A DNA stretch of 64,000 bases, taken from positions 78,358-142,357 of IMG/VR virus record IMGVR_UViG_3300012346_000561; one strand, given 5' to 3'. The notes beneath the pieces are model-generated. The model did not search any database. It was not told the origin of the DNA and worked only from the letters and a program-made list of their open reading frames with translations. How positions within the stretch are numbered: the first letter of the stretch is position 1; each line of letters opens with the position of its first letter. Below, in pieces: positions 3,365 to 58,656 of the stretch. This stretch comes from a virus. Its lineage: Duplodnaviria > Heunggongvirae > Uroviricota > Caudoviricetes. The translations under genes were made by a program, and so were the position numbers.

Positions 3365-4372
3365 TTAATAGTCAAGCTTGATTCTTAGTAGGATTTCTTT
3401 TGTAAAATCTTTTAGTAAAGGTCTTGATAGTTTAGCAACTCCTAAAAGTTCATTGTTATCGTTGTAAAGTCCTAATGTTGTTGGGTATGCTTGTGGAGAG
3501 TTCACCATTATATCATGACGTAATTCTCCTGATCCTGTAATGTTTGAAGGATTTGTAGAATAGTTGAATTCACTGTTTCTAACTCGAACAAATACATAGT
3601 TTGATGAAATGGTTTCTTCTGATCGTAGGGAAAGTGAACCTCCTGCTTTTAACATTTCATACATCAATCCAATGTTACTAGGTGTTGCTGTATCATCAAC
3701 TTCATTTAATATAGCTGATACTCCTCCTCCTGCTGGTGATGCTTTTAAAGCTTCTCCGTTCAATATTACGATACCTACATCTGGTAAAAATTTACCATAA
3801 CTTCCACTTGCTACTGTAAGCCCTGTTCCTCCGTTATAAGACACTCCATCAGATCCACTGATGATGTCATAAACTCTTCCTGAGTCTACATATGATACCG
3901 TTGTGCTTGCTGCACTATTATCTGTCAGTTTTATTGTATTACTTCCACTAGTTAAAGTTAAGTTGAAACTTCCTGGTTTTAGTTTTTCTTTGTATCTTGA
4001 TCTGTTAACTGCTAATACAAATATTGAATTTGGAGTTGTACTTCCAAAAGTAAAGTCAGTATCCTCATCTCCATTTATAAGAGTTCTATATTGTCCGTAT
4101 GTAATTGCAGACGCAGAACTTCCACTAATGTTGCTTATGTTTTCTGATCCTGATCCGTATCTATGTCCATATGCTACTGCAAACTGTACTGCGGCTCCTG
4201 CTGCATTTGAAGCTGTTTGGTATACGTTGTAGTAATACTTTCCTGTAGCTGTTACTTGATCTGATGAGGTAAAGAACGAAGTTAGTCGAGTAACTTGTCC
4301 TGACCAAGCAGGTGCTACTACTGACTCCGCACTTATTGTAATATCTTCTGGGTCTAATCTTTTGAATGACAT
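3365..4372 (-). CDS. tail fibre / receptor-binding protein, paralog B
   Basis: 335 aa; N- and C-terminal similarity to 2462..3361 (…TTLGLYNDNNELLGVAKL…). Confidence 0.5.
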   Translation of the reverse strand: MSFKRLDPEDITISAESVVAPAWSGQVTRLTSFFTSSDQVTATGKYYYNVYQTASNAAGAAVQFAVAYGHRYGSGSENISNISGSSASAITYGQYRTLINGDEDTDFTFGSTTPNSIFVLAVNRSRYKEKLKPGSFNLTLTSGSNTIKLTDNSAASTTVSYVDSGRVYDIISGSDGVSYNGGTGLTVASGSYGKFLPDVGIVILNGEALKASPAGGGVSAILNEVDDTATPSNIGLMYEMLKAGGSLSLRSEETISSNYVFVRVRNSEFNYSTNPSNITGSGELRHDIMVNSPQAYPTTLGLYNDNNELLGVAKLSRPLLKDFTKEILLRIKLDY

Positions 4373-5038: not shown

Positions 5039-5088
5039 TTTAAAATGCTTTTATTAATAAATATATGTTTTTTACTTTTCTAATGCAA

Positions 5089-6198
5089 CTATACTGTTGG
5101 TGGCACACTACCTGATATAATATATCCCGATCTGTCTAAGTGTACAATGTATCCTGTATCCTTTATACGGATCTTACCTCTCTTAACTGGGGATGGCTTG
5201 TTCCCTTCTAACTCGTACAATCTAACTGTTCGTACTCTTGTTAACTCTTTATTGTCAGTTAAAGTTGCAGGTGTAGTGTTATTCCATCCTCTTATTACAG
5301 TTATTATGTAATCTTCTGCTGCAGAATATCTTACCATTGACTGTACTTTTAATATCTCAGAACTATCTTGCACTAGTAATACATCTCCTGGTTTGTATAA
5401 CTTAAATGGTTTATTATTTCCTGTTATAGGCTCTGTTAGTATTGTAGTTGATAATAGGTCTGTTTGTGTTCCTTTTATTGTAAATAGTGTTGGTACATCT
5501 AACGAATATGTAGGATAGGTTGCTAGATCGGTATGAAAATACTCCAAATAAGATCTTTCTGAAATTTCTGTGTTTGTAATTTCCGAGTCCTTTATTGTAA
5601 TTGGATAATATGTTCCTTCAAAACTTGATCCTATAATTGCAGAGTCTATACTTGCGTAATTATCCCTATTTGTTACTGTTCCTGTATATCTACCATTTGT
5701 CCATCCTGTGTCTGAGTATAAACTGTCTTGTATTTGTGCGTATGTAGTAGACGTCGATATTGTTAGGTAGTCTGATTGTCTGTTTTCTTGTGCATTATTT
5801 AGTAGTACGTTGTACTCACTTGTAAAGAAACTTCCATTTCGTAGGTTTGGTAGTAGGACTACTTGTCCATTCTGCATTACCTCATTTGCATTAGGGTCTA
5901 CATAATCATCAGCATCTAATGGTTGCACAGTAAAGAAGTAGTAACTATTCGGAGAAGTTCCTAATAATACTCTGGTTATTATCGATAATTGTATGGACGC
6001 TGCTGTGTCATTATCTATTGGAATTATAAGTGTCTGTACTTGTTGCAACGTGTTTGCTACACTTATCCCATCACTATCAATTAGCGGAACAGTTACTCCC
6101 AGTACTGTCACTGGTGTGTCCTCTGTACACCATACGTTTAAGTTATATGGGTATATATCTGCTATTGCTAAAAATTCTTGCTGTGTTAAATTTGCCAT
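5089..6198 (-). CDS. tail structural protein (hypothetical)
   Basis: 369 aa ORF inside tail module. Confidence 0.4.
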   Translation of the reverse strand: MANLTQQEFLAIADIYPYNLNVWCTEDTPVTVLGVTVPLIDSDGISVANTLQQVQTLIIPIDNDTAASIQLSIITRVLLGTSPNSYYFFTVQPLDADDYVDPNANEVMQNGQVVLLPNLRNGSFFTSEYNVLLNNAQENRQSDYLTISTSTTYAQIQDSLYSDTGWTNGRYTGTVTNRDNYASIDSAIIGSSFEGTYYPITIKDSEITNTEISERSYLEYFHTDLATYPTYSLDVPTLFTIKGTQTDLLSTTILTEPITGNNKPFKLYKPGDVLLVQDSSEILKVQSMVRYSAAEDYIITVIRGWNNTTPATLTDNKELTRVRTVRLYELEGNKPSPVKRGKIRIKDTGYIVHLDRSGYIISGSVPPTV

Positions 6199-20376: not shown

Positions 20377-20577
20377 TTATTGATTAAAGTGATCCGAGAT
20401 ATAAGCATGCATGATTGTCCCCAAGATAATAGGCCAAGCAACAATTGCTCCTAAGATTTCCATAAACGTAAAGGGTTCGGTAGACTTTGTTACTCGAATA
20501 ATCAAATCAACCCCTGCTGCACAAATTAATCCTATAGATGCGTACTGTAGGATAATGTTTAAAATTAAGATTTCCAT
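20377..20577 (-). CDS. small two-TM membrane protein
   Basis: 66 aa hydrophobic; preceded by promoter cassette. Confidence 0.4.
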   Translation of the reverse strand: MEILILNIILQYASIGLICAAGVDLIIRVTKSTEPFTFMEILGAIVAWPIILGTIMHAYISDHFNQ

Positions 20578-20640
20578 AACCGTTTTGTTTTATTATTAAT
20601 ATACATAAATATAAGGCTTTATTGTTATGTATGCAACTAT
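20578..20640 (-). promoter_or_regulatory. promoter (AGTTGCATAC -33 type)
   Basis: ATAGTTGCATACATAACAATAAAGCCTTATATTTATGTATATTAATAATAAAACAAAACGGTT-ATG; near-identical to 37228 copy. Confidence 0.45.
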
Positions 20641-21125
20641 TTTGTTGAAAATATTTCAATAAATTTGTTAATTTTACTGCATTTTTCATAATGCTCGTGT
20701 ATAATAAATACCTGTAGCATTTTATCAAGTATATCTCGTACATGCGATGTACCAAACTCTGCTGCAACCATATCTGCACTATACCTGTCTATATCATCGA
20801 TTCTATCGAGCATTTTCATTGCTTGCGAAAAATACCTTAGTTGTATCTTATCGAAAACCTCATCATAATGTATACCGTATCTGTGGCGTTGAATTTTATC
20901 GAGTAGGTAGAAATTCTCTATACTCTTAATAACTGAACCTAATACGATGAAATCGTTACTATAAACATCCTGTAGGTCATCTTGCTCGTATACAACATCA
21001 TCGTAGTTGTCGAATATCGTAAAGATGTTGTCTATGTGTATTTTTTTCATTATATTACTTTTATATAAATATATACTGCATATAGTAAAAAAACTACCGA
21101 AATTTTTTATTACGGTTTTTTGCAA
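20637..21125 (-). CDS. hypothetical protein
   Basis: 162 aa ORF. Confidence 0.4.
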   Translation of the reverse strand: MQKTVIKNFGSFFTICSIYLYKSNIMKKIHIDNIFTIFDNYDDVVYEQDDLQDVYSNDFIVLGSVIKSIENFYLLDKIQRHRYGIHYDEVFDKIQLRYFSQAMKMLDRIDDIDRYSADMVAAEFGTSHVRDILDKMLQVFIIHEHYEKCSKINKFIEIFSTK

Positions 21126-21508
21126 AATGTATCGAAAACCTTAGTTGCAAAAACGTGTATATGTTTTGTATATTAATAACAGATACAGGCAGTTCAACAT
21201 ATAACGAGTTATTTGACATATTGAATTATTGACTATTGGGATATAGGTGGTGACCGTGCTAGGGTTTAGCAGCTGGGTAGGTAGGAGGACACCTTGGGGA
21301 AATTACCCTTAGAAGAATTTTTGAGGAAGGAAAGTAACCATAACTACATCTTATTTATTTAGTTATATAAATATATATCCCTTTAGTTCAATTTCTATCA
21401 GAAAAATACAAATAGATGTAGCTCGAAAAAACCGATTAAAAAACCGTTTGATGTAAATTAACTATCAACTTTATTTCAACATGCTCTCACAGTGACGTCA
21501 CCTTGACC

Positions 21509-21540
21509 TCGGTACAAAAAGAGAAGGCCTAAGCCTCCTC
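21509..21540 (-). terminator. weak terminator-like hairpin after gene 21529..21807
   Basis: GAGAAGGC-ctaa-GCCTCCTC with T-run on minus strand (A5 at 21509-21513). Confidence 0.3.
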
Positions 21541-21807
21541 GTGTTTAAATTCCACTAAGTCTGCAAACCTATGTTTGACAACTACTTTCTTACCCATTAT
21601 GAAAGTAACCCCTTCAAAACCTACTCTACCGATCTTACTTACGTTACATTCGTAATCATCCAGTATTACCTTTTGATCTATTGCAGATCTTATTTGTCTT
21701 GAGATGTGACCTGTGTTTGCACTTCCATCATAGGAGTAAGTTGAATCTCCTCTTCTAGTTGTTCCGATTGTAAATTGTACTCCAGATAAAAATTGTTCTT
21801 TAGTCAT
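21529..21807 (-). CDS. early hypothetical protein
   Basis: 92 aa; conserved promoter cassette immediately upstream. Confidence 0.45.
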   Translation of the reverse strand: MTKEQFLSGVQFTIGTTRRGDSTYSYDGSANTGHISRQIRSAIDQKVILDDYECNVSKIGRVGFEGVTFIMGKKVVVKHRFADLVEFKHEEA

Positions 21808-21872
21808 AATGTTATTTGTTTTAATTATTGATACCTAAAGATACTGAAATTAATTTACTTATGCAACTATCT
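21808..21872 (-). promoter_or_regulatory. class-1 conserved early promoter cassette
   Basis: minus-sense AGTTGCATAAG(-33)-20nt-TATCTTTAGGTATCAATAATTAAAACA-ATG. Confidence 0.5.
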
Positions 21873-22089
21873 TGAGAGATTTTTTATCTACTGATACTAA
21901 TTTACTTTCTCTTGTCTTGAGTACTGCTTCATCGTTCTCGTAGAATATTTGTACTAGCACTCCTTCTACTTCCTTACCAAAGAATTTGTCTACCCCTCGA
22001 TACACTACTCCTATTATTGGAGTGGAGGTCTTGGGAATATTCTTAGAAGCCCTCAACTTCCACTTACCTCTTAAATCTTGTTCTGCCAT
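21859..22089 (-). CDS. early hypothetical protein
   Basis: 76 aa; ATGA overlap with upstream gene. Confidence 0.4.
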   Translation of the reverse strand: MAEQDLRGKWKLRASKNIPKTSTPIIGVVYRGVDKFFGKEVEGVLVQIFYENDEAVLKTRESKLVSVDKKSLKIVA

Positions 22090-22298
22090 TACACCATCTC
22101 CTTATCAACTTGTTCTTGAAAATTCTCTAATGCCAATCTGTAACCAAAGTTCATTGCCATTTGCATTAACAATAAATCCATCGATCCGTGATTGGCTTTT
22201 GCAAATGATTCTAGATCTTCTCTAGTGTTTGGAGTTGCAACTATTCCTCTACTTAACATGTTAAACTCTCCTACTAAATACTCTTGTAAATTTTCCAT
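22089..22298 (-). CDS. early hypothetical protein
   Basis: 69 aa; promoter cassette upstream. Confidence 0.4.
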   Translation of the reverse strand: MENLQEYLVGEFNMLSRGIVATPNTREDLESFAKANHGSMDLLLMQMAMNFGYRLALENFQEQVDKEMV

Positions 22299-22375
22299 GA
22301 TGTTATTTGTTTTAATTATTAATGAGATAAAGATAAGAAATTATATAATGCGAGACAACTTTTATTCGTCGTCTC
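22299..22375 (-). promoter_or_regulatory. class-1 promoter cassette (variant)
   Basis: AAAGTTGTCTCGCATTATATAATTTCTTATCTTTATCTCATTAATAATTAAAACA. Confidence 0.45.
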
Positions 22376-22730
22376 TTTCTTCATCAACTCTTTCTAATTC
22401 AACAACATCTTGTTCAACTTCTGCTTCTCCAAAATCCATGAAGTTATTTTCTAATGCCTCTCTGATCTCTTCAAAGTTAATTTGAACACTAGTACATGCA
22501 ATTTTATTTCCCCATTCAATTTCAAACTCAGCATTCTCTAAATCCAATATGTCTCTTTCATTGTTTTCAATCCAATCAATTGTTCGATCGATCGCTCTCT
22601 GAATATCAGTAGTAGTAATTTCTCTACTTGAACCTACTTCAATTGAATTGATAATGTTGATAACATCTTCTGTACTGAAGATTGAACTTACTGAATTCTG
22701 AACTGCTTGTACTGCTTCTAATTTTGTCAT
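22362..22730 (-). CDS. early hypothetical acidic protein
   Basis: 122 aa; promoter cassette upstream. Confidence 0.45.
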   Translation of the reverse strand: MTKLEAVQAVQNSVSSIFSTEDVINIINSIEVGSSREITTTDIQRAIDRTIDWIENNERDILDLENAEFEIEWGNKIACTSVQINFEEIREALENNFMDFGEAEVEQDVVELERVDEERDDE

Positions 22731-22795
22731 AACTTTTATTGTTTTAATTATTGATACCTAAAGATACTCTTTTTCTACTTACGAAGCAACTTTTT
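22731..22795 (-). promoter_or_regulatory. class-1 promoter cassette
   Basis: AAAAAGTTGCTTCG...TATCTTTAGGTATCAATAATTAAAAC. Confidence 0.5.
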
Positions 22796-23006
22796 ATTCA
22801 ATTACTTTACTTTGTAGAAACTTAATAAACTTTTTAAGTTCTTGTTGATTAAGAAACAAATGTTCACTACCCCCAATCTTACTATCGCATTCAATTTCAA
22901 CATCTCCATCAGAATGACTTGAAATATTCCAAGTAGACCATTTTTGTTCAATAGTCATACTATTCCATTGTGGGTTATTTTCGAAGGTTGTAATTTCTAT
23001 AGACAT
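22794..23006 (-). CDS. early hypothetical protein
   Basis: 70 aa; promoter cassette upstream. Confidence 0.45.
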   Translation of the reverse strand: MSIEITTFENNPQWNSMTIEQKWSTWNISSHSDGDVEIECDSKIGGSEHLFLNQQELKKFIKFLQSKVIE

Positions 23007-23073
23007 AACTTATATTGTTTTAATTATTGATACCTAAAGATAGTAAATTATTTAATGCGAGACAACATTTTTG
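23007..23073 (-). promoter_or_regulatory. class-1 promoter cassette
   Basis: AAATGTTGTCTCGCATTA...TATCTTTAGGTATCAATAATTAAAACA. Confidence 0.5.
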
Positions 23074-23367
23074 TTAATTAATATAAATTTTTTCTCCATC
23101 CCATTCCTCTCCATTCAAATACGTTTGACCTTTCTTAACATTAACTCTAACATCATCTAAACCATTCAATCTTTCGAATGTAGTTCTAGTAGGCCATCCT
23201 GCATCTGTAATCCAAACTCCCATACGATCCATTCCTGCAATTGTATTACCATGAAGTTTTAATAATGGATACCCATCATCCTCAATCTGAACTGACATGT
23301 TTGACTTGTTGAACTTTACTCTGTTGTAGAAATTCTGAACTGACTCTTGTGTGATTTTTCTTGACAT
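23074..23367 (-). CDS. early hypothetical protein
   Basis: 97 aa; promoter cassette upstream. Confidence 0.45.
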   Translation of the reverse strand: MSRKITQESVQNFYNRVKFNKSNMSVQIEDDGYPLLKLHGNTIAGMDRMGVWITDAGWPTRTTFERLNGLDDVRVNVKKGQTYLNGEEWDGEKIYIN

Positions 23368-23436
23368 AACTTTTATTGTTTTAATTATTGATACCTAAAG
23401 ATAGTGAATAATATAATACGAGACAACAGTCTCACT
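23368..23436 (-). promoter_or_regulatory. class-1 promoter cassette
   Basis: same core, CTGTTGTCTCGTATTATATT...TATCTTTAGGTATCAATAATTAAAACA. Confidence 0.5.
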
Positions 23437-23620
23437 GATTTATTTTATAAAGGGATGTAATATGAAACATCCCCTATTCTAATGAACTGATCTTTGTTGA
23501 AGTTCTTTTTTGCATTTTTCAAATATGTAGCAGTACCATATGTTACTCCGTTCAACTTGATTGTATTCTTTGTAGTTTTGATTTTATTTGACATGATTGT
23601 AAGTTTAATGTTAGTTAATA

Positions 23621-23890
23621 TTATTTTCTGTAGAAACAAAACCTTGTACCAGGAACACTGTGATACCCGTATTTTGATTGATTGTACTTTGTGTAAGCAA
23701 GTTTGAAACCTTTGTTCGACATATCTTCGACAATCTGATCGATGATAGGCTGAGAGTACTGAGTGAAGCAAACTTTTACACCTACAGCGAGACCTTTTTT
23801 TCTAGTATCAGAGTATACTAATTGTTGGAATACGTGACCTGTAACTTTAGTAATACTTTTTTTCAATTCTGAAGTAATTGAATTTTTCAT
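23621..23890 (-). CDS. early hypothetical protein
   Basis: 89 aa; promoter cassette upstream; the overlapping ORF 23445..23771 judged mostly spurious (possible 49-aa gene 23445..23594). Confidence 0.45.
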   Translation of the reverse strand: MKNSITSELKKSITKVTGHVFQQLVYSDTRKKGLAVGVKVCFTQYSQPIIDQIVEDMSNKGFKLAYTKYNQSKYGYHSVPGTRFCFYRK

Positions 23891-23958
23891 AGTTTTATAT
23901 TGTTTTAATTATTGATACCTAAAGATAGTCTTTTAAATAATGCGAGACAACTTTTTTT
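23891..23958 (-). promoter_or_regulatory. class-1 promoter cassette
   Basis: AAAAAGTTGTCTCGCATTATTTAAAAGACTATCTTTAGGTATCAATAATTAAAACA. Confidence 0.5.
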
Positions 23959-24034
23959 ACAATTATTTTCAATTTATTTTATAACCCAAAAGAGCCACCC
24001 TAAGGTAGCTCTCTCTTCGATCAATAATTAAAAA

Positions 24035-24823
24035 CTATTCAGCTAAAGTGCGCTGAACAATACTTTCTCGTAGCCAGTAGACCTGGTCCACAATGCTCTC
24101 TACGTTGCAATTTTCTTCTCTACTTGTATGATCTCCGTGAGCGAAGTTAAATACAACAGTACCTTTCTTACCACTCTTACTTGGATCAGTCAACCTGATC
24201 GACTTGATAGTTGGAGTGTAGTTATATTTTAATTGAATACCCCTTCCTTTATCGAAAGTTATTCCTTCATCTTTCAAATCAAATTCAATCTTTTCTTTTA
24301 TCAAGAAAGTGATCATTCTCTCTACTCCATTAATCTCTATTCCCAATTCATGCAATTCTCTGTACACTACCTCAAATTCTGCCCTGAAAGGAATTACAGC
24401 ACTATTAACAGCATCCAACATTTTATCCTGATCCTTCAGAACAATCTCTGCTAAATCTCCTAACATTCTCAATCTTCTTAATTCCCAAGCATCAACTCCT
24501 TTTGTAGAGGTTGTATAGTAAGACAAGTCCACTCCTGTAAAAGACTTGCTATTCTTCCCTCCATCAAGATTATAATTCTCCCTTAAGTACAAACTAAATA
24601 ATTCTTTTTTGTAAGAGTAATCTGGATGATCTGCTTTAAAGTAAACAGACCCTCTAGTTACTTCAATATATGTATATGGACTAAATCCTGTGAAGAAAGG
24701 AAGTAAAGCATCTGAGATTGCTTGTTGCTCTCTTGTATAGATGTCATCACTCTTCTTCTGTAATTCTAATTTGCTTGCTGTAAGGACTGCCTTTTGATCC
24801 TCTAATAAACTTAATCTTGTCAT
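24035..24823 (-). CDS. early hypothetical protein
   Basis: 262 aa; promoter cassette upstream. Confidence 0.5.
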   Translation of the reverse strand: MTRLSLLEDQKAVLTASKLELQKKSDDIYTREQQAISDALLPFFTGFSPYTYIEVTRGSVYFKADHPDYSYKKELFSLYLRENYNLDGGKNSKSFTGVDLSYYTTSTKGVDAWELRRLRMLGDLAEIVLKDQDKMLDAVNSAVIPFRAEFEVVYRELHELGIEINGVERMITFLIKEKIEFDLKDEGITFDKGRGIQLKYNYTPTIKSIRLTDPSKSGKKGTVVFNFAHGDHTSREENCNVESIVDQVYWLRESIVQRTLAE

Positions 24824-24892
24824 AATGTTATATGTTTTAATTATTGATACCTAAAGATAGTCCTTTTAACAACACGAAGCAACTTTTTTTTA
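24824..24892 (-). promoter_or_regulatory. class-1 promoter cassette
   Basis: AAAAAAGTTGCTTCGTGTTGTTAAAAGGACTATCTTTAGGTATCAATAATTAAAACA. Confidence 0.5.
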
Positions 24893-25444
24893 AAGTTTTT
24901 CCAAAACTTTTTTAATAAAATTTTGATCGTAATCCGTAGTGCTGAAGTATTCTGTAAGAAATTCTTTTGCGTCTTGTCTGTTAAACTCAACTTCAAATTC
25001 ATTCTCCCAAGTATCATCACCATTAATAACCATTAGTAAAATACTATCGATCAGAAATTTATCATTATACAACCCAGTAACTTCATCTGCAGTTAAAGTT
25101 AAACGACCTAATGCTCTTGGAATTACAATAGTGTCTTGTTTAGTAGTTTCAACCACTTCAACTTTCTCAACTACTGGAGATGCAATATTATAAACAAATC
25201 GACTTTGATTTTTCTTTTTCTCAGTTCGACATACTAAACCCTTAGCGACAGCTCGTCTCAACAAGTCTGCGTATTTTTTATTTGATTCTAATTGTCTGGG
25301 AGCGTATCTGTAATAACCCCAAACACCCTCTTGGATTTCAGATTCTGTTTGATTTGGATTGTTAGTTAAGAATTCGACAATCTGCTTAACTGAATTTCTT
25401 GGCTGGTCAAAACCTTTGCCCATTAACATTGTTGAGTAACCCAT
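24890..25444 (-). CDS. early hypothetical protein
   Basis: 184 aa; promoter cassette upstream. Confidence 0.5.
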   Translation of the reverse strand: MGYSTMLMGKGFDQPRNSVKQIVEFLTNNPNQTESEIQEGVWGYYRYAPRQLESNKKYADLLRRAVAKGLVCRTEKKKNQSRFVYNIASPVVEKVEVVETTKQDTIVIPRALGRLTLTADEVTGLYNDKFLIDSILLMVINGDDTWENEFEVEFNRQDAKEFLTEYFSTTDYDQNFIKKVLEKL

Positions 25445-25512
25445 GATTTATATTGTTTTAATTATTGATACCTAAAGATAGTTAAAAATATAATACGAAG
25501 CAACTTTTTTTA
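25445..25512 (-). promoter_or_regulatory. class-1 promoter cassette
   Basis: AAAAAGTTGCTTCGTATTATATTTTTAACTATCTTTAGGTATCAATAATTAAAACA. Confidence 0.5.
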
Positions 25513-25645
25513 CAATTAATTTAAAGATAAATTTGCTTGGGCCATTTTAACAACTAATTCCTGAGGGTTGAAAGACATGTAAGAAACTCCTCCTAAATTT
25601 ACTTCGTAATAAGTAACTCCTAATAATACTACCTTTTTCATAACT

Positions 25646-26053
25646 CTATTGATTTAAAACTGAGAATTGATTCTCGTATGAATAATTCATAACAAATACT
25701 TTGTCAGCCCAAGTCTTAGCTCCTACTGCCTGGTATTGCTCCTGAGAGTATAGATTTGTGTTGTAGAACAATTGATTAACAGTACCTACTTCCAATTGCT
25801 CAGCAATCTCTTTATCCAATATACCTACTCTAGTACTCTTTCTAGCAAATACTGTTAACCAGTAGTTACATCCTTCAGGCTGGAATTGAATAGTCTGTAG
25901 AGCTCCTTTCTTCCATCTGTTTAGGGAAGGTAACTCAGATCCTATTTCATATGCCGTATAGAAACCTGCCTGTGTTTTAACAATAGCTTCATAAGTACCT
26001 TTTCTACCGTTAATGAAATCTACTACCTGTAATCCTTTAATTGTGTTGATCAT
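25646..26053 (-). CDS. early hypothetical protein
   Basis: 135 aa; promoter cassette variant upstream. Confidence 0.5.
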   Translation of the reverse strand: MINTIKGLQVVDFINGRKGTYEAIVKTQAGFYTAYEIGSELPSLNRWKKGALQTIQFQPEGCNYWLTVFARKSTRVGILDKEIAEQLEVGTVNQLFYNTNLYSQEQYQAVGAKTWADKVFVMNYSYENQFSVLNQ

Positions 26054-26118
26054 GATTTTTGTCGTTTTAATTATTGATGGGGTAAAGATACTGCTTTAGG
26101 GAATACGAGGCAACAGGT
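26054..26118 (-). promoter_or_regulatory. class-1 promoter cassette (diverged -7 flank)
   Basis: CTGTTGCCTCGTATTCCCTAAAGCAGTATCTTTACCCCATCAATAATTAAAACGACAAAAATC. Confidence 0.45.
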
Positions 26119-26294
26119 AAGGGTAATTTAGAATGAAAATAAATAACAAATTATTTTAGCCAAAGTGTTGCATATGAAGATCTTTAGGCGTATCTTTAGG
26201 TATTGAAAAAGCAAGGAGCTGTCAAGGGGCCTGGTTCGAGAGATCCGGAAGAGTAGACCGGACAGCGCTCCACACTCGTTACTTAAAGTAAAGC

Positions 26295-26360
26295 TTTAAC
26301 TGAAAGCAATACTTTCACTTCCATCAACACTTTAACTGAAAGCTTTAGTTTAACTGAAAG
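26295..26360. repeat. 3 direct copies of TTTAACTGAAAG
   Basis: copies at 26296-26307, 26330-26341, 26349-26360. Confidence 0.5.
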
Positions 26361-26379
26361 TAATGATTTAAGTAAAAAG

Positions 26380-26412
26380 AAAAAGGATCCTGTTTGGATC
26401 CTCTTTTTTTAT
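26380..26412. terminator. bidirectional rho-independent terminator
   Basis: AAAAAGGATCC-tgttt-GGATCCTCTTTTTTT: 7-bp stem flanked by A-run and T-run. Confidence 0.55.
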
Positions 26413-26510
26413 GTTTGTCTTTTCTGTCGTAAGTTTTTTTGCTCTTGTGCACCTTGTGCTGAGAAGCTGCCCACCTTTCCTGGAGGGTTACTTGAATTGT
26501 TTTCATAAGG

Positions 26511-26726
26511 CTAATAAAAATACATATTGTGAATGATTGTGTTGTCCAGGAGAATCTTCTGCCCTACGTGAGCATTGCTCCACTGAGCTCTACTATACAT
26601 AGTTGCAGTTACCTCTAAGGTGCTTTTAAATTTCCCTACTGAGATTAATTTAGCCTTTAGGGTAGGAGAGTAATTACACGAACAATCTTTCCCTATTACT
26701 GATTTTAATTCCTCGATACGTGTCAT
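26511..26726 (-). CDS. hypothetical protein (start revised to ATG at 26724-26726)
   Basis: promoter cassette at 26727-26790 lies inside the longer track ORF 26511..26825, so internal Met (MTRIEELK) is the likely start. Confidence 0.4.
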   Translation of the reverse strand: MTRIEELKSVIGKDCSCNYSPTLKAKLISVGKFKSTLEVTATMYSRAQWSNAHVGQKILLDNTIIHNMYFY

Positions 26727-26790
26727 ATGTTTGTCTTTAGTTCCTAAAGATACTGCTTTTTTTGTTACGAGACAACATTTTTTTACATTA
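26727..26790 (-). promoter_or_regulatory. class-1 promoter cassette (diverged downstream half)
   Basis: AAAAATGTTGTCTCGTAACAAAAAAAGCAGTATCTTTAGGAACTAAAGACAAACAT-ATG. Confidence 0.45.
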
Positions 26791-26853
26791 TTCGCAATAC
26801 TTTTAAGTTTTCCTATAAGGGACAATTATCACATTCTCAACAGTTCTGCAATT

Positions 26854-27025
26854 CGGTTGCGAATCCGTTAACCAAACGGTTCCTTAGACGGTTAGCCAAC
26901 TGGTTTCCAGGTCGGTTAGCCAAACGGTTCTGTAGACGGTTCACCAAACAGTTACCCAAACGGTTTCTTAGGCGGTTTCGTAGACGGTTTGCCAATCGGT
27001 TACCCAATCAGTTTTTTAATCGGTT
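26854..27025. repeat. 15 tandem 12-bp-phased CGGTT (CAGTT) iteron-like repeats
   Basis: CGGTT/CAGTT/TGGTT start at 26854, 26865, 26877, 26889, 26901, 26913, 26925, 26937, 26949, 26961, 26973, 26985, 26997, 27009, 27021; unit consensus nnCnAAnCGGTT. Confidence 0.7.
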
Positions 27026-27029
27026 AGGT

Positions 27030-27295
27030 AGGATAAAAACCACCTATATACAAATTTGTTAAGAGGAGGAGACACACGTGACATTTTTTACCTATATCTC
27101 CTACCCTTTACTTTACCATTTTCTACACATTATATAGCCAACCTAGTACTTTGTATAACCTATTACCTTGTATTTGATACATTTGGTTATATTTTTATAT
27201 ACTTTACAATCTATACATTACCATATGATTTACCTAGTGTTTCTAACGTATTTTCCCTTGTTATACCACGGGATCTTGTAAGGTACGATCGCTTT
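27030..27295. other. AT-rich tract between the two CGGTT arrays (candidate DNA-unwinding element)
   Basis: ~265 bp with no credible ORF, A+T visibly higher than flanks; plus-strand ORF 27056..27397 judged spurious. Confidence 0.4.
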
Positions 27296-27301
27296 GCTAA
27301 T

Positions 27302-27366
27302 CGGTTATGCAAACGGGTGCACAAACGGTTATCCAATCGGTTTTGTGATCGGTTTACTTATCAGTT
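27302..27366. repeat. second array, 6 copies of 12-bp-phased CGGTT repeat, same orientation
   Basis: CGGTT/CGGGT/CAGTT at 27302, 27314, 27326, 27338, 27350, 27362. Confidence 0.65.
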
Positions 27367-27704
27367 AATATGGTCATTGTGTTCTTATCAAACATAGATT
27401 TGTGTACGACCTTTTGTGTACCATCACTCATTAATAAGCTATAGTGTGAAGGTCTCTTTTGAATTATCCTTACCACAGTTACATTTGCATTACTATTAGT
27501 AGTATTATCTTTTTTATCTACAATAGTATTTGCTTTTACTATAGGGGTACTAGTAGTAGTGTCTGGAGTATTATCTATTGTACTCTCTACTATGTTATCT
27601 TTCTGATCTGTACTTTGATTTGAGATTTGATTAGTAATGTTTTGATCAACTGTTGTTGGTTCATTAGTTGTTTGTGTCTGTGTGCTTGCTGTTTGCTTTG
27701 CCAT
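27354..27704 (-). CDS. low-complexity Thr/Asn/Gln-rich protein with basic C-terminal domain
   Basis: 116 aa; 3' end overlaps second CGGTT repeat array. Confidence 0.4.
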   Translation of the reverse strand: MAKQTASTQTQTTNEPTTVDQNITNQISNQSTDQKDNIVESTIDNTPDTTTSTPIVKANTIVDKKDNTTNSNANVTVVRIIQKRPSHYSLLMSDGTQKVVHKSMFDKNTMTILTDK

Positions 27705-27845
27705 TTGTATTTGATTTTAATTTATAATTTTTGTTTTTAGATTGTTTTGTTTTAGGTCTTGGAGGCATTGGTATTCTTCTTCCTCCTCCTTTCAATCCAA
27801 CACTACCTGTCATTGCTAATACAAGTAGTAGCCAAATGAAGAACA

Positions 27846-28043
27846 TCATATCTCTTCCAATGTTAATATTGATATACAATGTGGAAAGTTATCATAGTCT
27901 CTGAGTATTACCAATCCTCCTTGTTCGTTTACTACCTGGACAGCTATTCCTTCTATAACCTTTCCTGCTCCTTTTCTAGAGTTAAAGGTTACTTTATTAC
28001 CTCTGTACTTCTTAAAGTATAATACTACGTCTTCAATCTTCAT
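27846..28043 (-). CDS. small hypothetical protein
   Basis: 65 aa ORF. Confidence 0.35.
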   Translation of the reverse strand: MKIEDVVLYFKKYRGNKVTFNSRKGAGKVIEGIAVQVVNEQGGLVILRDYDNFPHCISILTLEEI

Positions 28044-29856: not shown

Positions 29857-29915
29857 AACCTCTATTGTTTTTAATTATACCTAAATATAAGGAATTGCCT
29901 CCGAAGAGGCAACTT
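29857..29915 (-). promoter_or_regulatory. class-2 promoter cassette with hairpin over -33
   Basis: AAAAAAGTTGCCTCTTCGGAGGCAA..TATATTTAGGTATAATTAAAAACAATAGAGGTT-ATG. Confidence 0.5.
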
Positions 29916-31475: not shown

Positions 31476-31545
31476 AACCTTTATTTTTAATTTCTATACC
31501 TAAATATACGAAAAAAGGCCTACCGAAGCAAGCCTTTTGTCAATT
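31476..31545 (-). promoter_or_regulatory. class-2 promoter cassette
   Basis: AAAAGGCTTGCTTCGGTAGGCCTTTTTTCGTATATTTAGGTATAGAAATTAAAAATAAAGGTT-ATG. Confidence 0.5.
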
Positions 31546-31562
31546 ATTTTTAAAATATTTTA

Positions 31563-32399: not shown

Positions 32400-32482
32400 A
32401 ACTTCTTTGTTTAAATTTGATTTATAATTAATTGTTTATTATTATACCTAAATATACGAAATATATTCTTAGGAGGCAACTA
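32400..32482 (-). promoter_or_regulatory. class-2 promoter cassette
   Basis: AGTTGCCTCCTAAG..TCGTATATTTAGGTATAATAATAAACAATTAATT. Confidence 0.45.
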
Positions 32483-34597: not shown

Positions 34598-34665
34598 AAC
34601 TGATTGTTTAATTATTAATACTTTGTAAATATAGTAATTAATATAACGCGAGGCAACAGTCTAGT
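34598..34665 (-). promoter_or_regulatory. class-2 promoter cassette
   Basis: CTGTTGCCTCGCGTTATATTAATTACTATATTTACAAAGTATTAATAATTAAACAATCAGTT-ATG. Confidence 0.45.
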
Positions 34666-35557: not shown

Positions 35558-35625
35558 AACCTTTATCTTTTTATTTATACCTAAATATATGAATAAAATC
35601 CCTACTAGGCAACTTTTTATTGAAG
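35558..35625 (-). promoter_or_regulatory. class-2 promoter cassette
   Basis: AAAAAGTTGCCTAGTAGGG..TTCATATATTTAGGTATAAATAAAAAGATAAAGGTT-ATG. Confidence 0.5.
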
Positions 35626-35991: not shown

Positions 35992-36055
35992 AACCTTTAT
36001 CTTTTTATTTACCTAAATATATGAATAAATAACTAATCTAGCAACTATTTTTCGA
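35992..36055 (-). promoter_or_regulatory. class-2 promoter cassette
   Basis: AAATAGTTGCTAGATTAG..TTCATATATTTAGGTAAATAAAAAGATAAAGGTT-ATG. Confidence 0.5.
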
Positions 36056-37227: not shown

Positions 37228-37292
37228 AACCGTTTTGTTTAATAATTATACGTAAACATACTTATAAAAATATTAGTATGCAACTATTATTT
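37228..37292 (-). promoter_or_regulatory. promoter (AGTTGCATAC -33 type)
   Basis: TAGTTGCATACTAATATTTTTATAAGTATGTTTACGTATAATTATTAAACAAAACGGTT-ATG. Confidence 0.45.
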
Positions 37293-53528: not shown

Positions 53529-55471
<1,943 letters not shown>

Positions 55472-56322: not shown

Positions 56323-58656
56323 TTAATGTCCATCTCTCCAGTTTAATGATATTTCTGGTGGTGCTTTTAGTGTTACTCCTTCCAGTTGTGTTGTTACTTC
56401 CATTATGTGCTGAATGATCGGAGCTAGTTCTTGTGCTCTGTCCTCAGGTACATTTATGATTAACTGGTCATGTACTTGTGCCTGCACTCTTCCGTCTACT
56501 CCTAACTCTCTTAACTTTCTATTAATTTGAACAGCAGCTCTGTTCACAACCGCTGCAGCTAGTGATTGCAGTTGGTAATTTAGACAGTTGTTTAATCCAT
56601 TTCGATAATCTCTATACATTTGAGTCACTGCCTCTTTTCCATATCTAGATTCTAAATCTTTTCTGAATCTCCAATCCATCAGCTGATCTCCATACTTTGA
56701 GAATACTTGTTTAACTTTTGGTAAGTGACGAATACGTCCTACTTTATTCTTAATGTATCCATTCTGCTTTACTTGATCTCTGGATTTTATTCTCCACTCT
56801 TTTAGTTGTGGGAATCCGTTAAGATATCCATCCACAAGTACTTCAGCTTCTTTCTGTGTAATGTTTAGAGTCTTTGCTAATGCGTAGGCTTCCATTCCGT
56901 ATGCAATTCCTAACGAGTAAGGCTTTGCTCTGTTACGTGCAGGTGCATCTAATTTCTTTAAATAATTAGGTGCTTTCTTATCTGATGATACTCCATCAGG
57001 GAATCTCACTTTGTCTTGTTCTAGCTTTTCTGTTTTGATTGCAACTGTAGAATAAAAATCCCAACCCTTGTTAAAGATCTCTTGTAGTGCAACGTCTCCT
57101 GTTACAGATGCGAAGCAGTGAGGTTCTAGTGATTCGTAATCGGCATCGATAATCTTTCTTCCAGGACCTGATGTAAGAAATGCTCGTACTAAGTTATTGT
57201 AGTGTACTACGATAGGTGCATCCTCTCCATCCTCTTTAGGTTTTGGTAATTGTTGAGCATCTGATCCGTATCGTCCTGATACTGTTCCATTCTGTTTGAA
57301 GTAGAAGTAGTACTTACCATCTTCCTCCCCATCAATGAACCTATCAACGTATGTTGATTTGATCTTAACAAGTTTATTGTAAATACGAAGATTCTCAGCC
57401 CACTCATATGTTTTTGAAAGCTCTTCCAACATGTCCATATCAAATTGATCTTGACCTTTGCTTGTTTGTGTTAGAGCTTTTATTCCCATATACTTGAATG
57501 CGATTTCTCCTAAGTGCTTCTTTGATTGAATGTTGAGATACTCTCCGTCATTCTCTTCTTTCCACATTGTCATAGAAATCTTAACAACTTCCATTTCGTC
57601 TAATAGAGAAAGTTCATTCGTTAATAGAAATTGCTTAACGTTGCTCTCTTCCAATGCTTCTACATCTTTTTTAGTCAGAGAATACTTACCTGTCTTTTCA
57701 CTTCGTGGTAATGGTAGTGAATGTAACATTACTAAGTTCTGAGCCCAGTTACCTTTGTTTGATGGTGGATAGTTGTACAATGCTGTATCGACTGCCCACT
57801 CTCTTGCTTCTGGAATTGCTAGGATACTTTTTACTACAATCTGTTTGTTTTTCTCTAGGTCATTTATAATATCCTCTCTGGTCTTGTTTAGTAAGTCCAT
57901 GTCAAGATCTACTCCTAGTTCTTCCATAGGAACAGTTACTTCTTTATAAAGAGGCATTACTTCTTCTTCAAAGAAGAATTGCTCCAACTCCTCCTCTTTA
58001 AGTTTCTGTAAGAAGTGGTAACATACTCTCAATGTTAAGTCGGTATCGGCAGATGCATACTTGGATAGAATGTCCATGTCTGCTTTGTAAATCTCAAAGT
58101 TATCCTTTGTAATTGATCCTCCATTTCTCTTTATGGATTCTTTCAGCTCAACCTGCTCTTTGTTGGCTGCTTCTTCTACATTCAATCCTATGTGTTGTTG
58201 AATTGAGATTGCCAAAGGCTTCAATCCAAACACTCCCATGCCAGCTCCTTCTTCTTGCACTGTATGAACAAGGAGAGCTGTATCTACCCAAAGATCTTCT
58301 AATAAAGATACTCCGTAATAGTTCTTGGTAAAACGGCAGTCGAAAGAAGCATTGTGCATTACTAGTTTCTTACCCTTAAGCAGCGGGAGTAACTTTTTAG
58401 TAATGTCATGTGCTCCTTTGCCGCCAATGATGCATTCTTCTAGTTGATTAGTCTGTGCGTTCCATTTCTGAGTTGGAAGATAAAATCCCATTCCTGTGTC
58501 TCCTGACACTGACCATCCTACTATTGTTCCTTTTCTTGGATTAAGACTGTCTGTCTCAGTATCGTATGCAATGACCTGTGACTGGTTGATATGTTCAATT
58601 AATAGATTTACAGTCTCTATATTGTCAACGTGGTAGTACTTTTTTTCTATTTGCAT
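56323..58656 (-). CDS. family A DNA polymerase (Pol I-like) with 3'-5' exonuclease domain
   Basis: Exo I VIAYDTETDSL; motif A DADYESLEPHCF; motif B RNRAKPYSLGIAYGM; motif C QVHDQLII. Confidence 0.85.
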   Translation of the reverse strand: MQIEKKYYHVDNIETVNLLIEHINQSQVIAYDTETDSLNPRKGTIVGWSVSGDTGMGFYLPTQKWNAQTNQLEECIIGGKGAHDITKKLLPLLKGKKLVMHNASFDCRFTKNYYGVSLLEDLWVDTALLVHTVQEEGAGMGVFGLKPLAISIQQHIGLNVEEAANKEQVELKESIKRNGGSITKDNFEIYKADMDILSKYASADTDLTLRVCYHFLQKLKEEELEQFFFEEEVMPLYKEVTVPMEELGVDLDMDLLNKTREDIINDLEKNKQIVVKSILAIPEAREWAVDTALYNYPPSNKGNWAQNLVMLHSLPLPRSEKTGKYSLTKKDVEALEESNVKQFLLTNELSLLDEMEVVKISMTMWKEENDGEYLNIQSKKHLGEIAFKYMGIKALTQTSKGQDQFDMDMLEELSKTYEWAENLRIYNKLVKIKSTYVDRFIDGEEDGKYYFYFKQNGTVSGRYGSDAQQLPKPKEDGEDAPIVVHYNNLVRAFLTSGPGRKIIDADYESLEPHCFASVTGDVALQEIFNKGWDFYSTVAIKTEKLEQDKVRFPDGVSSDKKAPNYLKKLDAPARNRAKPYSLGIAYGMEAYALAKTLNITQKEAEVLVDGYLNGFPQLKEWRIKSRDQVKQNGYIKNKVGRIRHLPKVKQVFSKYGDQLMDWRFRKDLESRYGKEAVTQMYRDYRNGLNNCLNYQLQSLAAAVVNRAAVQINRKLRELGVDGRVQAQVHDQLIINVPEDRAQELAPIIQHIMEVTTQLEGVTLKAPPEISLNWRDGH

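Follow-up and report, generated by a model that had tools for sequence, protein, structure and literature searches.

On the minus strand of the 64,000-nt stretch of DNA that was analysed (the window), a cluster of 14 small ORFs occupies positions 21529..26726: g1 (21529-21807), g2 (21859-22089), g3 (22089-22298), g4 (22362-22730), g5 (22794-23006), g6 (23074-23367), g7 (23445-23594), g8 (23621-23890), g9 (24035-24823), g10 (24890-25444), g11 (25516-25641), g12 (25646-26053), the doubtful ORF g13 (26345-26506) and g14 (26511-26726). An intrinsic-terminator-like hairpin on the same strand (21521..21540) lies 3' of g1 and closes the cluster, and a bidirectional terminator-like hairpin (26380..26410), which has a GGATCC stem and T-runs on both strands, sets the g14 unit apart from the rest. 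The phage, a Flavobacterium myovirus, is Immutovirus-like and distantly resembles T4; its nearest cultured relative is Flavobacterium phage immuto, which infects Flavobacterium sp. LMO8, in agreement with the host phylum that an earlier sequence-only reading of this DNA had assigned.

Ten cassettes on the minus strand precede genes of this cluster, and the lower coordinate of each is the base directly 5' of an ATG. Seven of the ten are canonical and contain the exact 27-mer TATCTTTAGGTATCAATAATTAAAACA: cassette 1 (21808..21867, 27-mer at 21817-21843) in front of g1, with its -33 GTTG falling within the last codons of g2; cassette 3 (22731..22790, 22740-22766) in front of g4; cassette 4 (23007..23066, 23016-23042) in front of g5; cassette 5 (23368..23435, 27-mer starting at 23377) in front of g6; cassette 6 (23891..23951, 23901-23927) in front of g8, behind which g7 follows; cassette 7 (24824..24883, 24833-24859) in front of g9; and cassette 8 (25445..25504, 25454-25480) in front of g10. 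The other three copies are degenerate. Cassette 2 (22299..22359, TATCTTTATC-TC-ATTAATAATTAAAACA), 5' of the g3-g2 pair, and cassette 9 (26054..26114, TATCTTTACC-CC-ATCAATAATTAAAAC), 5' of g12, retain AT(C/T)AATAATTAAAAC with a 4-nt linker in place of 'GGT', while cassette 10 (26727..26776, GTTG-N20-TATCTTTAGG), 5' of g14, keeps the promoter boxes and has a shorter, different leader. The ten near-identical cassettes described previously thus share one architecture, GTTG-N20-TATCTTTA with a spacer of exactly 20 nt at ten of ten sites, but near-identity applies to seven of them only; the notion of one cassette per small gene does not hold, as g2, g7, g11 and g13 have none.

The seven exact matches to TATCTTTAGGTATCAATAATTAAAACA are all on the minus strand, with 0 expected in the window and none found in 100 dinucleotide-preserving shuffles of it, and the repeat described earlier is thus confirmed. 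GTTG-N20-TAnnTTTA occurs 20 times in the window (0.54 +/- 0.69 expected), 18 times on the coding (minus) strand; E. coli-type sigma-70 sites are not in excess there (33 found, 26.7 +/- 5.9 expected). From 5' to 3', each cassette can be read as beginning with an A/T-rich tract, which is followed by GTTG at -33, a 20-bp spacer that evolves freely, and TAT(C/A)TTTA as the -7 box with GG behind it; a transcribed leader of about 25 nt would then start near TATCAATAATTAAAACA, with the ATG 3' of it. The upstream motif AAAAAGTTG(C/T)(C/T)TCG that had been proposed is semi-conserved, GTTG being present in all ten window copies, YYTCG in nine and the A-tract in about seven. The last base of the -7 box is A in every window copy, and the shared sequence stops 1-11 nt 5' of the ATG at each site.

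Copies defined by the leader TATCAATAATTAAAACA, which is located 3' of the -7 box, were assigned to class A, and a looser set with the same boxes but other leaders to class B. When sites were anchored by GTTG-N19-21-TAnnTTTR alone and the next 17 nt compared with the leader consensus, the Hamming distances were bimodal, with 0-3 mismatches at 235 sites and mostly 7-12 at the remainder; the spacer is exactly 20 nt at 235 of 235 class-A sites. All differences between the two classes lie 3' of the common TAnnTTTAGGTAT. The part of the cassette which defines the class and is most conserved is the predicted transcribed leader and not the promoter boxes. Among 228 cassettes, the distance from leader to ATG is 7-10 nt in 213 and exactly 9 nt in 130, and an ORF of at least 30 aa follows in 225.

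Immuto carries 16 copies in a single cluster of about 6 kb (67.6-73.8 kb of its 160-kb genome), and immuto isolates are the only matches among 50,697 cultured phage records. Class-A copies number 226-233 across 28 genomes or contigs and are confined to one cluster per genome; the exact 27-mer occurs in 34 stretches of IMG/VR viral-contig DNA. The relatives share only about 70-80% DNA identity with the window. Across 64 orthologous pairs of cassettes from the window and its relatives, GTTG is 100%, the -7 box 93% and the leader 86% (median 94%) identical, compared with 44.5% for the spacer, 54% for third codon positions and 59% for protein identity. These comparisons show purifying selection on the putative boxes and leader and a lack of conservation in the spacer and at third codon positions, and the exceptional conservation claimed previously is thereby upheld (86-100% versus 44-54%). 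Near-identity might instead be a by-product of recent duplication or gene conversion, without any need for the exact sequence. Such concerted evolution would account for the greater resemblance of spacers inside one genome (0.50) than across genomes (0.39; none of 2000 permutations gave as large a difference) and for the preference of each genome for a box variant of its own (TATCTTTAGG in the window, TATATTTAGG in immuto). However, conversion within a genome cannot keep a sequence constant between genomes, and both the recurrence of the exact 27-mer in IMG/VR and the spread of class A over 28 genomes or contigs with 70-80% identity in coding DNA, and with spacers and third positions near saturation, have already largely refuted this explanation, which we regard as very improbable.

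The -33/-7 architecture and its spacing fit the Bacteroidota sigma-A promoter as published, TTTG/TAnnTTTG with the -7 box at -12 to -5; in F. johnsoniae and F. psychrophilum the -33 element is TTTG/TTG and the median 5' UTR is 24 nt (PMC6847099, PMC9723704). As judged from these sources (Baez et al. 2019 and Guerin et al. 2021, respectively) together with Chen et al. 2007 as cited in PMC2483708, the cassettes share with Flavobacterium host promoters and initiation regions the TA and TTT of the -7 box, with TTG some 20 bp 5' of it, and a leader whose length is about 25 nt, as well as TAAAA, A at -3, -6, -12 and -13, low secondary structure and the lack of a Shine-Dalgarno sequence. The sigma-A match claimed earlier consequently stands for the -33 TTG, the -7 TAnnTTT and the spacing, but not for the position that closes the -7 box: in host promoters the G at -5 is nearly invariant and, in F. 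johnsoniae, the -33 motif is weak (PMC6847099), whereas the cassettes have A, followed by GG, and an invariant GTTG. At all TTG-N19-21-TAnnTTT sites, A outnumbers G after TTT by 22:2 in the window and 47:2 in immuto. Since the host G is near-invariant, recognition by the plain host sigma-A is an assumption. It might be speculated that the cassettes are read by phage-altered or phage-encoded machinery, such as a phage sigma factor, a -33 appropriation factor like T4 MotA/AsiA, or a virion-delivered polymerase or modifier, in which case the cassette genes would be middle rather than immediate-early. Besides the A-GG ending and the invariant GTTG, this would suit the presence of the same box type 5' of genes across the non-structural half of the genome and of some structural genes (5058-5089, 20606-20637), because of which the box type alone does not mark an 'early' class. 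On the other hand, the cassettes agree with the host promoter at the TA and TTT positions, in the 20-bp spacing and in the -33 TTG, and the immuto annotation contains no sigma factor or RNA polymerase, its lone 'RpoN/RPB10' label belonging to a 100-aa protein. Moreover, two unrelated Flavobacteriia phages, phiST and 11b, have boxes of the TATCTTTA type as well, which suggests that the box is an acceptable host-type variant. Altered machinery is accordingly considered unlikely.

With regard to translation, the Flavobacterium ribosome-binding motif is given as TAAAA, 2-12 nt 5' of the start codon (Chen et al. 2007, as cited in PMC2483708), and initiation is promoted by A at -3, -6, -12 and -13 (Baez et al. 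2019, PMC6847099). The cassette leaders carry TAAAA and A at -3, -6 and -12 to -15 and have no Shine-Dalgarno sequence, whose absence had been noted before. Of 228 cassettes, 79% have A and 95% have a purine at position -3, AAAA occupies -12 to -15 when the ATG lies 9 nt past the leader, the commonest spacing (130/228), and the leaders are predicted to be nearly unstructured (minimum free energies of 0 to -3.1 kcal/mol). A search of 185,579 species genomes did not show a 20-mer of the -7/leader junction to be a host leader, the sole hit with the cassette architecture being a mis-binned phage fragment.

The invariance of TATCAATAATT goes beyond what known translation or promoter signals explain, and the leader might, as an added layer rather than a replacement, be an address label for a dedicated trans-acting factor. 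It could be a putative DNA operator at about +1 to +16 that switches the whole cluster off or on, or a putative 5'-UTR site for a translational repressor or RNase, like T4 RegA or RegB; in either form all class-A genes would be co-regulated. The two classes differing only 3' of the common boxes, a leader 86-100% identical beside randomised spacers, an invariance greater than generic A-rich translation signals demand (PMC6847099), the single cluster per genome and a conserved, antisense-oriented non-coding element within that cluster are all in line with such a label. A candidate factor is g10, a conserved protein of the cluster with a predicted helix-helix-helix-wing arrangement in its N-terminal domain; PadR, MarR and MecI are the best structural neighbours of the model. 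However, the leader shows no dyad symmetry, the model of g10 reaches only moderate confidence (pLDDT of 72-82 within the domain and of 56 overall) and gave no Foldseek match at E <= 0.001, many relatives that keep the cassettes lack g10, and strong selection for maximal promoter escape and translation could suffice. We therefore put the address label forward tentatively, as an idea with somewhat more against it than for it.

The modular shuffling proposed earlier is borne out by the relatives. Gene order is permuted in L018, L027, L028, L035 and L043, and the modules of g6, g8 and g10 occur in L043 at 84-86% identity in a different order, with alignment blocks that both start and end in cassettes. 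L006 and L015 are 99.3% identical across 7.5 kb, after which L015 has two additional cassette-plus-ORF modules; the crossover sits between the spacer and the -7 box. Ends of homology blocks fall within 50 nt of a cassette centre in 70% of cases, compared with 21% for random positions, which is supportive but not decisive, because unequal divergence of neighbouring genes also places block ends at intergenic spacers. Taken together, these sequence comparisons show rearrangements among relatives that are bounded by cassettes. Junctions within repeats would also be expected if the repeats were sites of a site-specific recombinase, a homing element or a miniature mobile element rather than expression signals. 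Yet they are oriented strictly as the genes are, keep the near-constant distance to an ATG and the following ORF described above, and have neither terminal inverted repeats nor target-site duplications, and none of ten tested cluster proteins matched a recombinase or integrase family; this explanation borders on the negligible.

We consider it likely that the cassettes drive strong and probably early expression through host-type signals and double as recombination joints, which would make them a variant of the promoter-early stem-loops (PeSLs) of T4-type phages. Each cassette would contain, in compact form, the whole expression signal of one small accessory gene or short gene pair. Host RNA polymerase with a Bacteroidota-type primary sigma factor would start about 4-5 nt past the -7 box, and the A-rich, unstructured leader would recruit Flavobacterium ribosomes through TAAAA and the conserved A positions. 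As for the genes behind T4 early promoters, expression is probably early and strong; transcript data on this phage or immuto were not found in the literature searched. Since identical cores of 27-44 bp recur every 0.3-0.9 kb, they may in a second role provide homology patches for recombination, by which related phages could gain, lose and reorder whole cassette-plus-ORF modules, as they do at the PeSLs of the T4 type. The genes concerned are unrelated small ORFans that are not paralogues of one another; nine of ten tested cluster proteins matched no Pfam family above the curated cut-off and no PHROG family, and the anti-defence or host-takeover role and the single regulator suggested earlier for this gene set are conjectural.

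Integron gene-cassette arrays similarly consist of unrelated small ORFs that are bounded by a repeated element and are gained, lost and reordered, but here both an integrase and an attC-like folded recombination site are lacking, every module has its own putative promoter, and exchange presumably proceeds by general homologous recombination. The early, or 'uber', promoters of T4 contain all the elements that the host machinery recognises and are believed to win the competition with host promoters as soon as infection has begun (Hinton 2010, PMC2988021). Like the cassettes, they have conserved positions beyond the host consensus and an A/T-rich upstream element; they differ in sigma type, conservation here reaches about 16 nt into the predicted transcript, no Alt-like ADP-ribosyltransferase was identified here, and early timing is suggested here by analogy. 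The closest parallel are the PeSLs of RB49/phi1, T4/PST and KVP40/nt-1 (Arbiol et al. 2010, PMC2839356; Comeau et al. 2014, PMC4122927), which are likewise cassettes of about 60-100 bp, repeated between the genes of a hyperplastic region in a large myovirus, and in which an AT-rich tract, a host-type promoter, a ribosome-binding region and the ATG follow one another. In both systems a small ORFan stands behind each cassette, each phage lineage has its own consensus, and indel, replacement and displacement junctions between relatives fall inside cassettes. In contrast, PeSLs have sigma-70 -35/-10 promoters rather than the Bacteroidota -33/-7 type, the cassettes described here lack a Shine-Dalgarno sequence, and their most conserved block is an invariant 17-nt leader, predicted to be transcribed, which is not described for PeSLs. 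The defining stem-loop is absent from six of the seven canonical window cassettes and present only in cassette 5 (GAGAC-TGTT-GTCTC, 23418-23435, overlapping the -33 element), the sole window copy with a hairpin; among the relatives, a terminator-like hairpin around the -33/spacer region, the commonest PeSL stem-loop position, is found in 61 of 228 cassettes. PeSL phages have several hyperplastic regions rather than a single cluster per genome, and PeSLs have been described only in phages of Proteobacteria. Thus, the single promoter-plus-leader of about 60 bases that precedes ten unrelated small genes would represent the Bacteroidota counterpart of the PeSL early-gene cassettes.

The cassettes lie on the minus strand between 21808 and 26776, ahead of a run of small genes (g1-g14, 21529-26726), and the ten positions listed by the sequence-only reading (21808, 22299, 22731, 23007, 23368, 23891, 24824, 25445, 26054 and 26727) are in every case the base preceding an ATG. 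The pattern search proposed there for the 27-mer TATCTTTAGGTATCAATAATTAAAACA was run on the window and returned seven mismatch-free copies (21817, 22740, 23016, 23377, 23901, 24833 and 25454), all on the minus strand, which without exception also carries the ORFs of annotated size; the 27-mer did not occur in 100 dinucleotide-preserving shuffles. Anchored on the -7 box, all ten sites consist of GTTG, 20 nt and TATCTTTA. The pattern GTTG-N20-TAnnTTTA is found at 20 sites in the window, of which 18 reside on the coding strand, compared to 0.54 +/- 0.69 expected. Given the seven exact 27-mers, their absence from the shuffles and the common GTTG-N20 architecture, the repeated cassettes are real. 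Their description as ten near-identical copies is correct for the boxes and the spacing, which all ten share, but only seven are canonical (before g1, g4, g5, g6, g8, g9 and g10) while three are degenerate. The copies before g3 and g12 keep AT(C/T)AATAATTAAAAC, with GGT replaced by a 4-nt linker, and the copy before g14 retains the promoter boxes and has a shorter and different leader. Nor is there one cassette in front of each gene, as ten cassettes serve 14 ORFs and g2, g7, g11 and g13 have none of their own. Gene paralogy, by which the repeats would have arisen together with the genes behind them, was rejected as their origin, since an all-against-all BLASTP of the 14 downstream ORFs yielded no significant pair.

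To define the anatomy of the cassette, copies were collected from the window, from the complete genome of the nearest cultured relative, Flavobacterium phage vB_FspM_immuto (immuto), and from 34 IMG/VR stretches containing the exact 27-mer. This gave 226-233 distinct cassettes from 28 genomes or contigs, the count shifting slightly with the filter. An A-rich tract is followed by GTTG (2.0 bits) and a 20-nt spacer with an information content near zero, and further peaks reside at TAT(C/A)TTTAGG and then at TATCAATAATTAAAACA. As a safeguard against circularity, we re-anchored the sites on GTTG-N19-21-TAnnTTTR alone and compared the next 17 nt with the leader consensus. The sites fell into two groups with either 0-3 leader mismatches (235 sites) or mostly 7-12, and the spacer of the former measured exactly 20 nt in 235 of 235 sites. 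Thus, the cassettes sharing this leader (class A) form a discrete class, whose defining sequence follows the -7 box. Most immuto boxes read TATATTTAGG, with a leader identical to that of the window type. Class B, which has the same boxes followed by other leaders, reads GTTGC-N20-TATATTTAGG-TATAa..., is looser and is scattered elsewhere in the genome, in the window for example at 29882-29913, 32449-32480, 34626-34657, 35582-35613, 36014-36045 and 37253-37284 and, near structural genes, at 5058-5089 and 20606-20637. The start context AAAGGTTATG is conserved at many class-B 3' ends, and in some copies the two boxes enclose a hairpin. In the class-B promoters at 29882-29913 and 31499-31559 this hairpin between the -33 and -7 boxes is perfect (e.g. 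GCCTC-TTCG-GAGGC), and both are predicted to be composite terminator/promoter elements in the classic layout of promoter-early stem-loop cassettes (PeSLs). A repeat resembling these hairpins, comprising the hairpin only, is located at 62166-62216.

Conservation was assessed in 64 orthologous pairs, in which a cassette precedes both the window gene and the homologue from a relative. Identity amounted to 100% for GTTG, 93% for the -7 box and 86% (median 94%) for the leader, compared to 44.5% for the spacer, 54% at third codon positions and 59% for the protein. Boxes and leader have been kept while spacer and third positions diverged, strongly indicating purifying selection on the former; the conservation of the cassettes thus exceeds recent copying. 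Spacers are 50% identical within and 39% identical between genomes, a difference reached in none of 2000 permutations, suggesting that cassettes of a single genome have been copied from, or converted by, one another. The cassette is specific to the immuto-like lineage: matches among 50,697 cultured phage records were limited to the immuto isolates, and in immuto all 16 copies reside in one 6.2-kb cluster (67.6-73.8 kb) that is syntenic with the window cluster. A scan of 185,579 species genomes for the 20-mer AGGTATCAATAATTAAAACA identified four stretches, of which one, a mis-binned 3.3-kb phage fragment in a freshwater bin, has the cassette architecture. As this architecture was restricted to the phage fragment, mimicry of a host leader was rejected. 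A single exact AGGTATCAATAATTAAAACA occurs 8 nt before an ATG in Pseudarcicella hirudinis (Cytophagales; NZ_FOXH01000004.1, ~3627-3646), where the GTTG and TAnnTTTA boxes are absent; this copy could be due to chance or be the relic of a phage leader.

The nearest and only cultured relatives are the immuto phages of Flavobacterium sp. LMO8 (Immutovirus, 160 kb, Baltic Sea). Immuto is ~80% identical to the region over one quarter of it and 73% identical over 26 kb of alignable DNA. Based on its annotated T4-like gp20, gp23, prohead protease and baseplate genes, the window phage is a distant T4-like myovirus of a Bacteroidota host, and the host phylum named by the sequence-only reading is supported by the cultured relative, which infects Flavobacterium. 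The window further harbors a GroEL-type chaperonin (53529-55163; a GroES is also present in immuto) and a family-A DNA polymerase with a 3'-5' exonuclease domain (56323-58656). A 51-nt periodic repeat (17 aa; CCTACTGCTGTRTT... units) at 1105-2091 lies in a 567-aa ORF (754-2457) whose syntenic gene in immuto is annotated as a tail fibre, and is probably a fibre domain of repetitive beta-structure.

Flavobacterium sigma-A promoters possess a -7 box TAnnTTTG at -12 to -5 and TTTG or TTG near -33, the median 5' UTR is 24 nt, and Shine-Dalgarno sequences are absent (PMC6847099, PMC9723704, PMC7366714); for Bacteroidota, the -7 element is also given as TAHHTTTG (PMC6847099, PMC9723704). In the cassettes, GTTG provides the TTTG/TTG expected 19-21 bp before the -7 box, and with the box taken at -12 to -5 its last G is located at -33. 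The -7 box shows no variation at T, A and TTT, and G is absent from both n positions. Its last base is A in all ten window copies, followed by GG, at a position (-5) where the host has a near-invariant G; similarly, A outnumbers G at TTG-N19-21-TAnnTTT sites by 22:2 in the window and 47:2 in immuto. Hence, the proposed match to the Bacteroidota sigma-A consensus holds for the -33 TTG, the spacing and TA/TTT, but not for position -5, where A takes the place of the host G. If transcription starts within GGTATCA, as would be predicted, the leader would measure about 25 nt.

That the genes lack a Shine-Dalgarno sequence was likewise correctly noted, as the leaders of the window copies are without GGAGG. 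In F. johnsoniae, TAAAA has been reported as a ribosome-binding motif 2-12 nt ahead of the start (PMC2483708), and A at positions -3, -6, -12 and -13 was shown to promote initiation (PMC6847099). The cassette leader carries TAAAA, which at the commonest spacing ends 11 nt before the ATG. The gap between leader and ATG has a mode of 9 nt (130 of 228 cassettes; 7-10 nt in 213 of 228), at which AAAA falls at -12 to -15. At position -3, 79% of the cassettes have A and 95% have a purine; A is enriched at -6, and the leader with the first 30 nt of coding sequence is essentially unstructured (predicted free energy 0 to -3.1 kcal/mol). With regard to TAAAA, A positions and low structure, the region therefore corresponds to a Flavobacterium-type initiation region free of Shine-Dalgarno sequences. 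Within the end of g3, AAGGAG at 22098-22103 is located 8 nt before the start of g2 (g3/g2 overlap TAATG) and has the appearance of a canonical Shine-Dalgarno sequence from which g2 would be translated internally, in a phage whose host phylum generally lacks them.

Promoters of the E. coli sigma-70 type were rejected as an explanation, as such sites are not enriched. The reading of GTTGCTT as a MotA box was rejected as well: conservation across relatives is limited to GTTG, the next three bases reaching 0.4-0.8 bits, and a MotA box would have its centre at -30, whereas GTTG occupies -36 to -33. The reading of the repeats as putative promoter cassettes is supported by both sequence and comparative evidence; transcriptomes of immuto-like phages are absent from the literature searched. 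Known determinants of promoters or translation do not account for the exact invariance of TATCAATAATT, and a hypothetical factor dedicated to binding TATCAATAATT in DNA or RNA is plausible.

In immuto DNA, every guanine (100%) is replaced by 7-(formylamino)methyl-7-deazaguanine (fdPreQ1) (PMC10516641). The window encodes FolE (60194-60835) and the end of QueE (a fragment, 63900-63998) of the 7-deazaguanine DNA-modification pathway, as well as a DpdA-like protein (59416-60192) 26% identical to immuto DpdA; homologues of QueF and DpdN were not found in the window. Together with the full substitution in immuto, these genes make it probable that the putative early promoters of the window phage are transcribed from modified DNA. 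With regard to a possible link between guanine modification and the A at -5, two further phages were compared. In phiST, whose guanines are all deazaguanine-substituted and which possesses an RNA polymerase of its own, the ratio of A to G on the coding strand is 12:4, and in phage 11b it is 5:2, both being small numbers. The presence of an A/GG-type -7 box in a guanine-substituted lineage provides a handle on how Bacteroidota RNA polymerase reads modified DNA.

Relatives share the backbone g14-g13-g12 ... g9 ... g4-g3-g2-g1, while other modules are present, absent or moved. Among the stretches compared, L018 has the order g9-g5-g2-g7-g6-g3-g1, g8 precedes g9 and both g6 and g4 come after g2 in L028, and L035 and L043 have the order g12-(g11)-g6-g8-g10-g9; the contig with the best match differs from window gene to window gene. 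Two stretches, L006 and L015 (IMG/VR contigs 3300046003_006038 and 3300024549_000375), are 99.3% identical over 7.5 kb ending at the cassette before g3, past which L015 has two additional cassette-plus-ORF modules (1180-1880). Their spacers differ and the sequences match again beginning with the -7 box and leader, strongly suggesting a crossover inside the cassette, between spacer and -7 box. This natural, near-identical uncultured pair, analogous to RB49/phi1, would lend itself to experiments or population-level studies on cassette-mediated exchange. Similarly, the window modules of g6, g8 and g10 are 84-86% identical to those of L043 in a changed order, and both ends of the alignment blocks are located in cassettes. 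Among homology blocks of at least 300 bp and at least 80% identity, 70% of the ends lie within 50 nt of a cassette centre compared to 21% for random positions, a figure that is supportive only, since unequal divergence of neighbouring genes would also raise it. The modular shuffling suggested earlier is thus upheld by the permuted order among relatives and by the junctions inside cassettes (L006/L015 and window/L043), and sequence and comparative evidence together support the reading of the cassettes as putative sites of exchange.

Little can be said on the proteins from their families: nine of the ten tested have no PHROG family and no Pfam family above the curated cut-off, and g6 is a member of Kyano_Gp96, a family of unknown function from T4-like cyanophages. 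The results speak neither for nor against the anti-defence role suggested by the sequence-only reading, which, like the early timing and the single regulator, is hypothetical. Homologues of g10 (24890-25444) occur in metagenomes only, and its N-terminal 100 residues are found as a stand-alone 102-aa protein in many relatives. This domain is modeled with moderate confidence (pLDDT 72-82) as helix-helix-helix-wing; the nearest structures are PadR, MarR and MecI regulators, none at E <= 0.001, and neither g9 nor g10 has a significant sequence match in the PDB. Based on the model, g10 is possibly a DNA-binding protein encoded within the cassette cluster.

A single convincing promoter, GTTG-N20-TATCTTTAGG at 26167-26200 (+), opposes all genes and is followed by ~205 nt of non-coding sequence. 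In this element (26167-26410, +), a G+C-rich hairpin is accompanied by four 18-nt repeats (26294-26364) and by a bidirectional terminator (26384-26410); g13, the doubtful ORF, overlaps with it, as do tiny ORFs of the immuto annotation. In 14 relatives its promoter boxes, GGGGCCTG and CGGAAGAGTAGAC are invariant, and a 7-bp hairpin has three covarying pairs. No Rfam or tRNA match was obtained for the element, nor by Rfam (E <= 1) over 20500-28000 or by a tRNA/tmRNA scan of the whole window. The element may represent either a conserved small RNA of the phage or an origin of the R-loop type. An array (26867-27025) of ~13 units with a 12-nt period (CGGTTnnCnAAA) and higher-order periods of 24 and 48 nt is located directly upstream of the first cassette, and its position and sequence type are kept in at least 7 relatives; iteron-like in appearance, the array may function as an origin or in the binding of proteins.

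It might be speculated that the class-A leader serves as a dedicated 'address label', read as DNA or RNA by a phage-specific factor that jointly switches exchangeable accessory ORFans, for which the winged-helix-like g10 and the antisense-oriented non-coding element at 26167-26410 would be candidates. We consider this rather improbable. If true, the cassettes would resemble an integron that operates without an integrase and is confined to one lineage of Bacteroidota phages, and both the A at -5 with GG and the invariance of GTTG would stem from the recognition of promoters on hypermodified DNA. The invariant leader, which exceeds known requirements, marks a candidate regulatory site, and it deserves attention together with the two conserved non-coding neighbours. 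The cassette may also be of use as a compact and probably very strong natural promoter-plus-leader part for Flavobacterium genetics, and the 27-mer as a tag to recruit immuto-like contigs from metagenomes, 34 stretches having been obtained in one scan.

Among described systems, the cassettes come closest to the PeSL of T4-type phages, in which an AT-rich tract and a strong sigma-70 promoter are combined with a stem-loop, a Shine-Dalgarno sequence and a start codon; PeSLs are found ahead of ORFans in hyperplastic regions, where they mediate both indels and the formation of mini-circles (PMC2839356, PMC4122927). Judged by sequence, the present cassettes similarly combine a consensus-strength promoter of the host type with an AT-rich upstream tract and an ORF immediately after. 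They also stand before ORFans in a hyperplastic region, in one cluster per genome with variable gene content and order, and the indel and replacement junctions of close relatives lie inside them. Unlike in PeSLs, the promoter is of the Bacteroidota type rather than sigma-70 -35/-10, a Shine-Dalgarno sequence is absent, and the stem-loop is not constant, with a hairpin in one of the seven canonical window copies (23418-23435). Hairpins of <= -8 kcal/mol are present in 61 of 228 cassettes lineage-wide compared to 8 of 228 shuffled controls; the hairpin occurs in the lineage and is not a constant part of the cassette. PeSL descriptions do not include an invariant transcribed leader such as the 17 nt found here. 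T4 early promoters have consensus positions additional to the host elements (PMC2988021), as do the cassettes. The cassettes do not correspond to an integron cassette array with its tyrosine-recombinase integrase and attC sites, as the ten cluster proteins tested match no recombinase family and the repeats are without an attC-like imperfect palindrome. The literature searched contains no earlier description of the cassettes or of promoters of immuto-like phages. Mobile regulatory cassettes such as PeSLs have there been described only for T4-like phages of Proteobacteria, and the principle would now extend to a phage of Bacteroidota, which have a different promoter grammar and no Shine-Dalgarno mechanism. 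The recurrence of the architecture suggests a general solution by which large lytic phages trial and exchange accessory genes, and the cassettes are a clean Bacteroidota-phage example of this known principle that is new for such phages.
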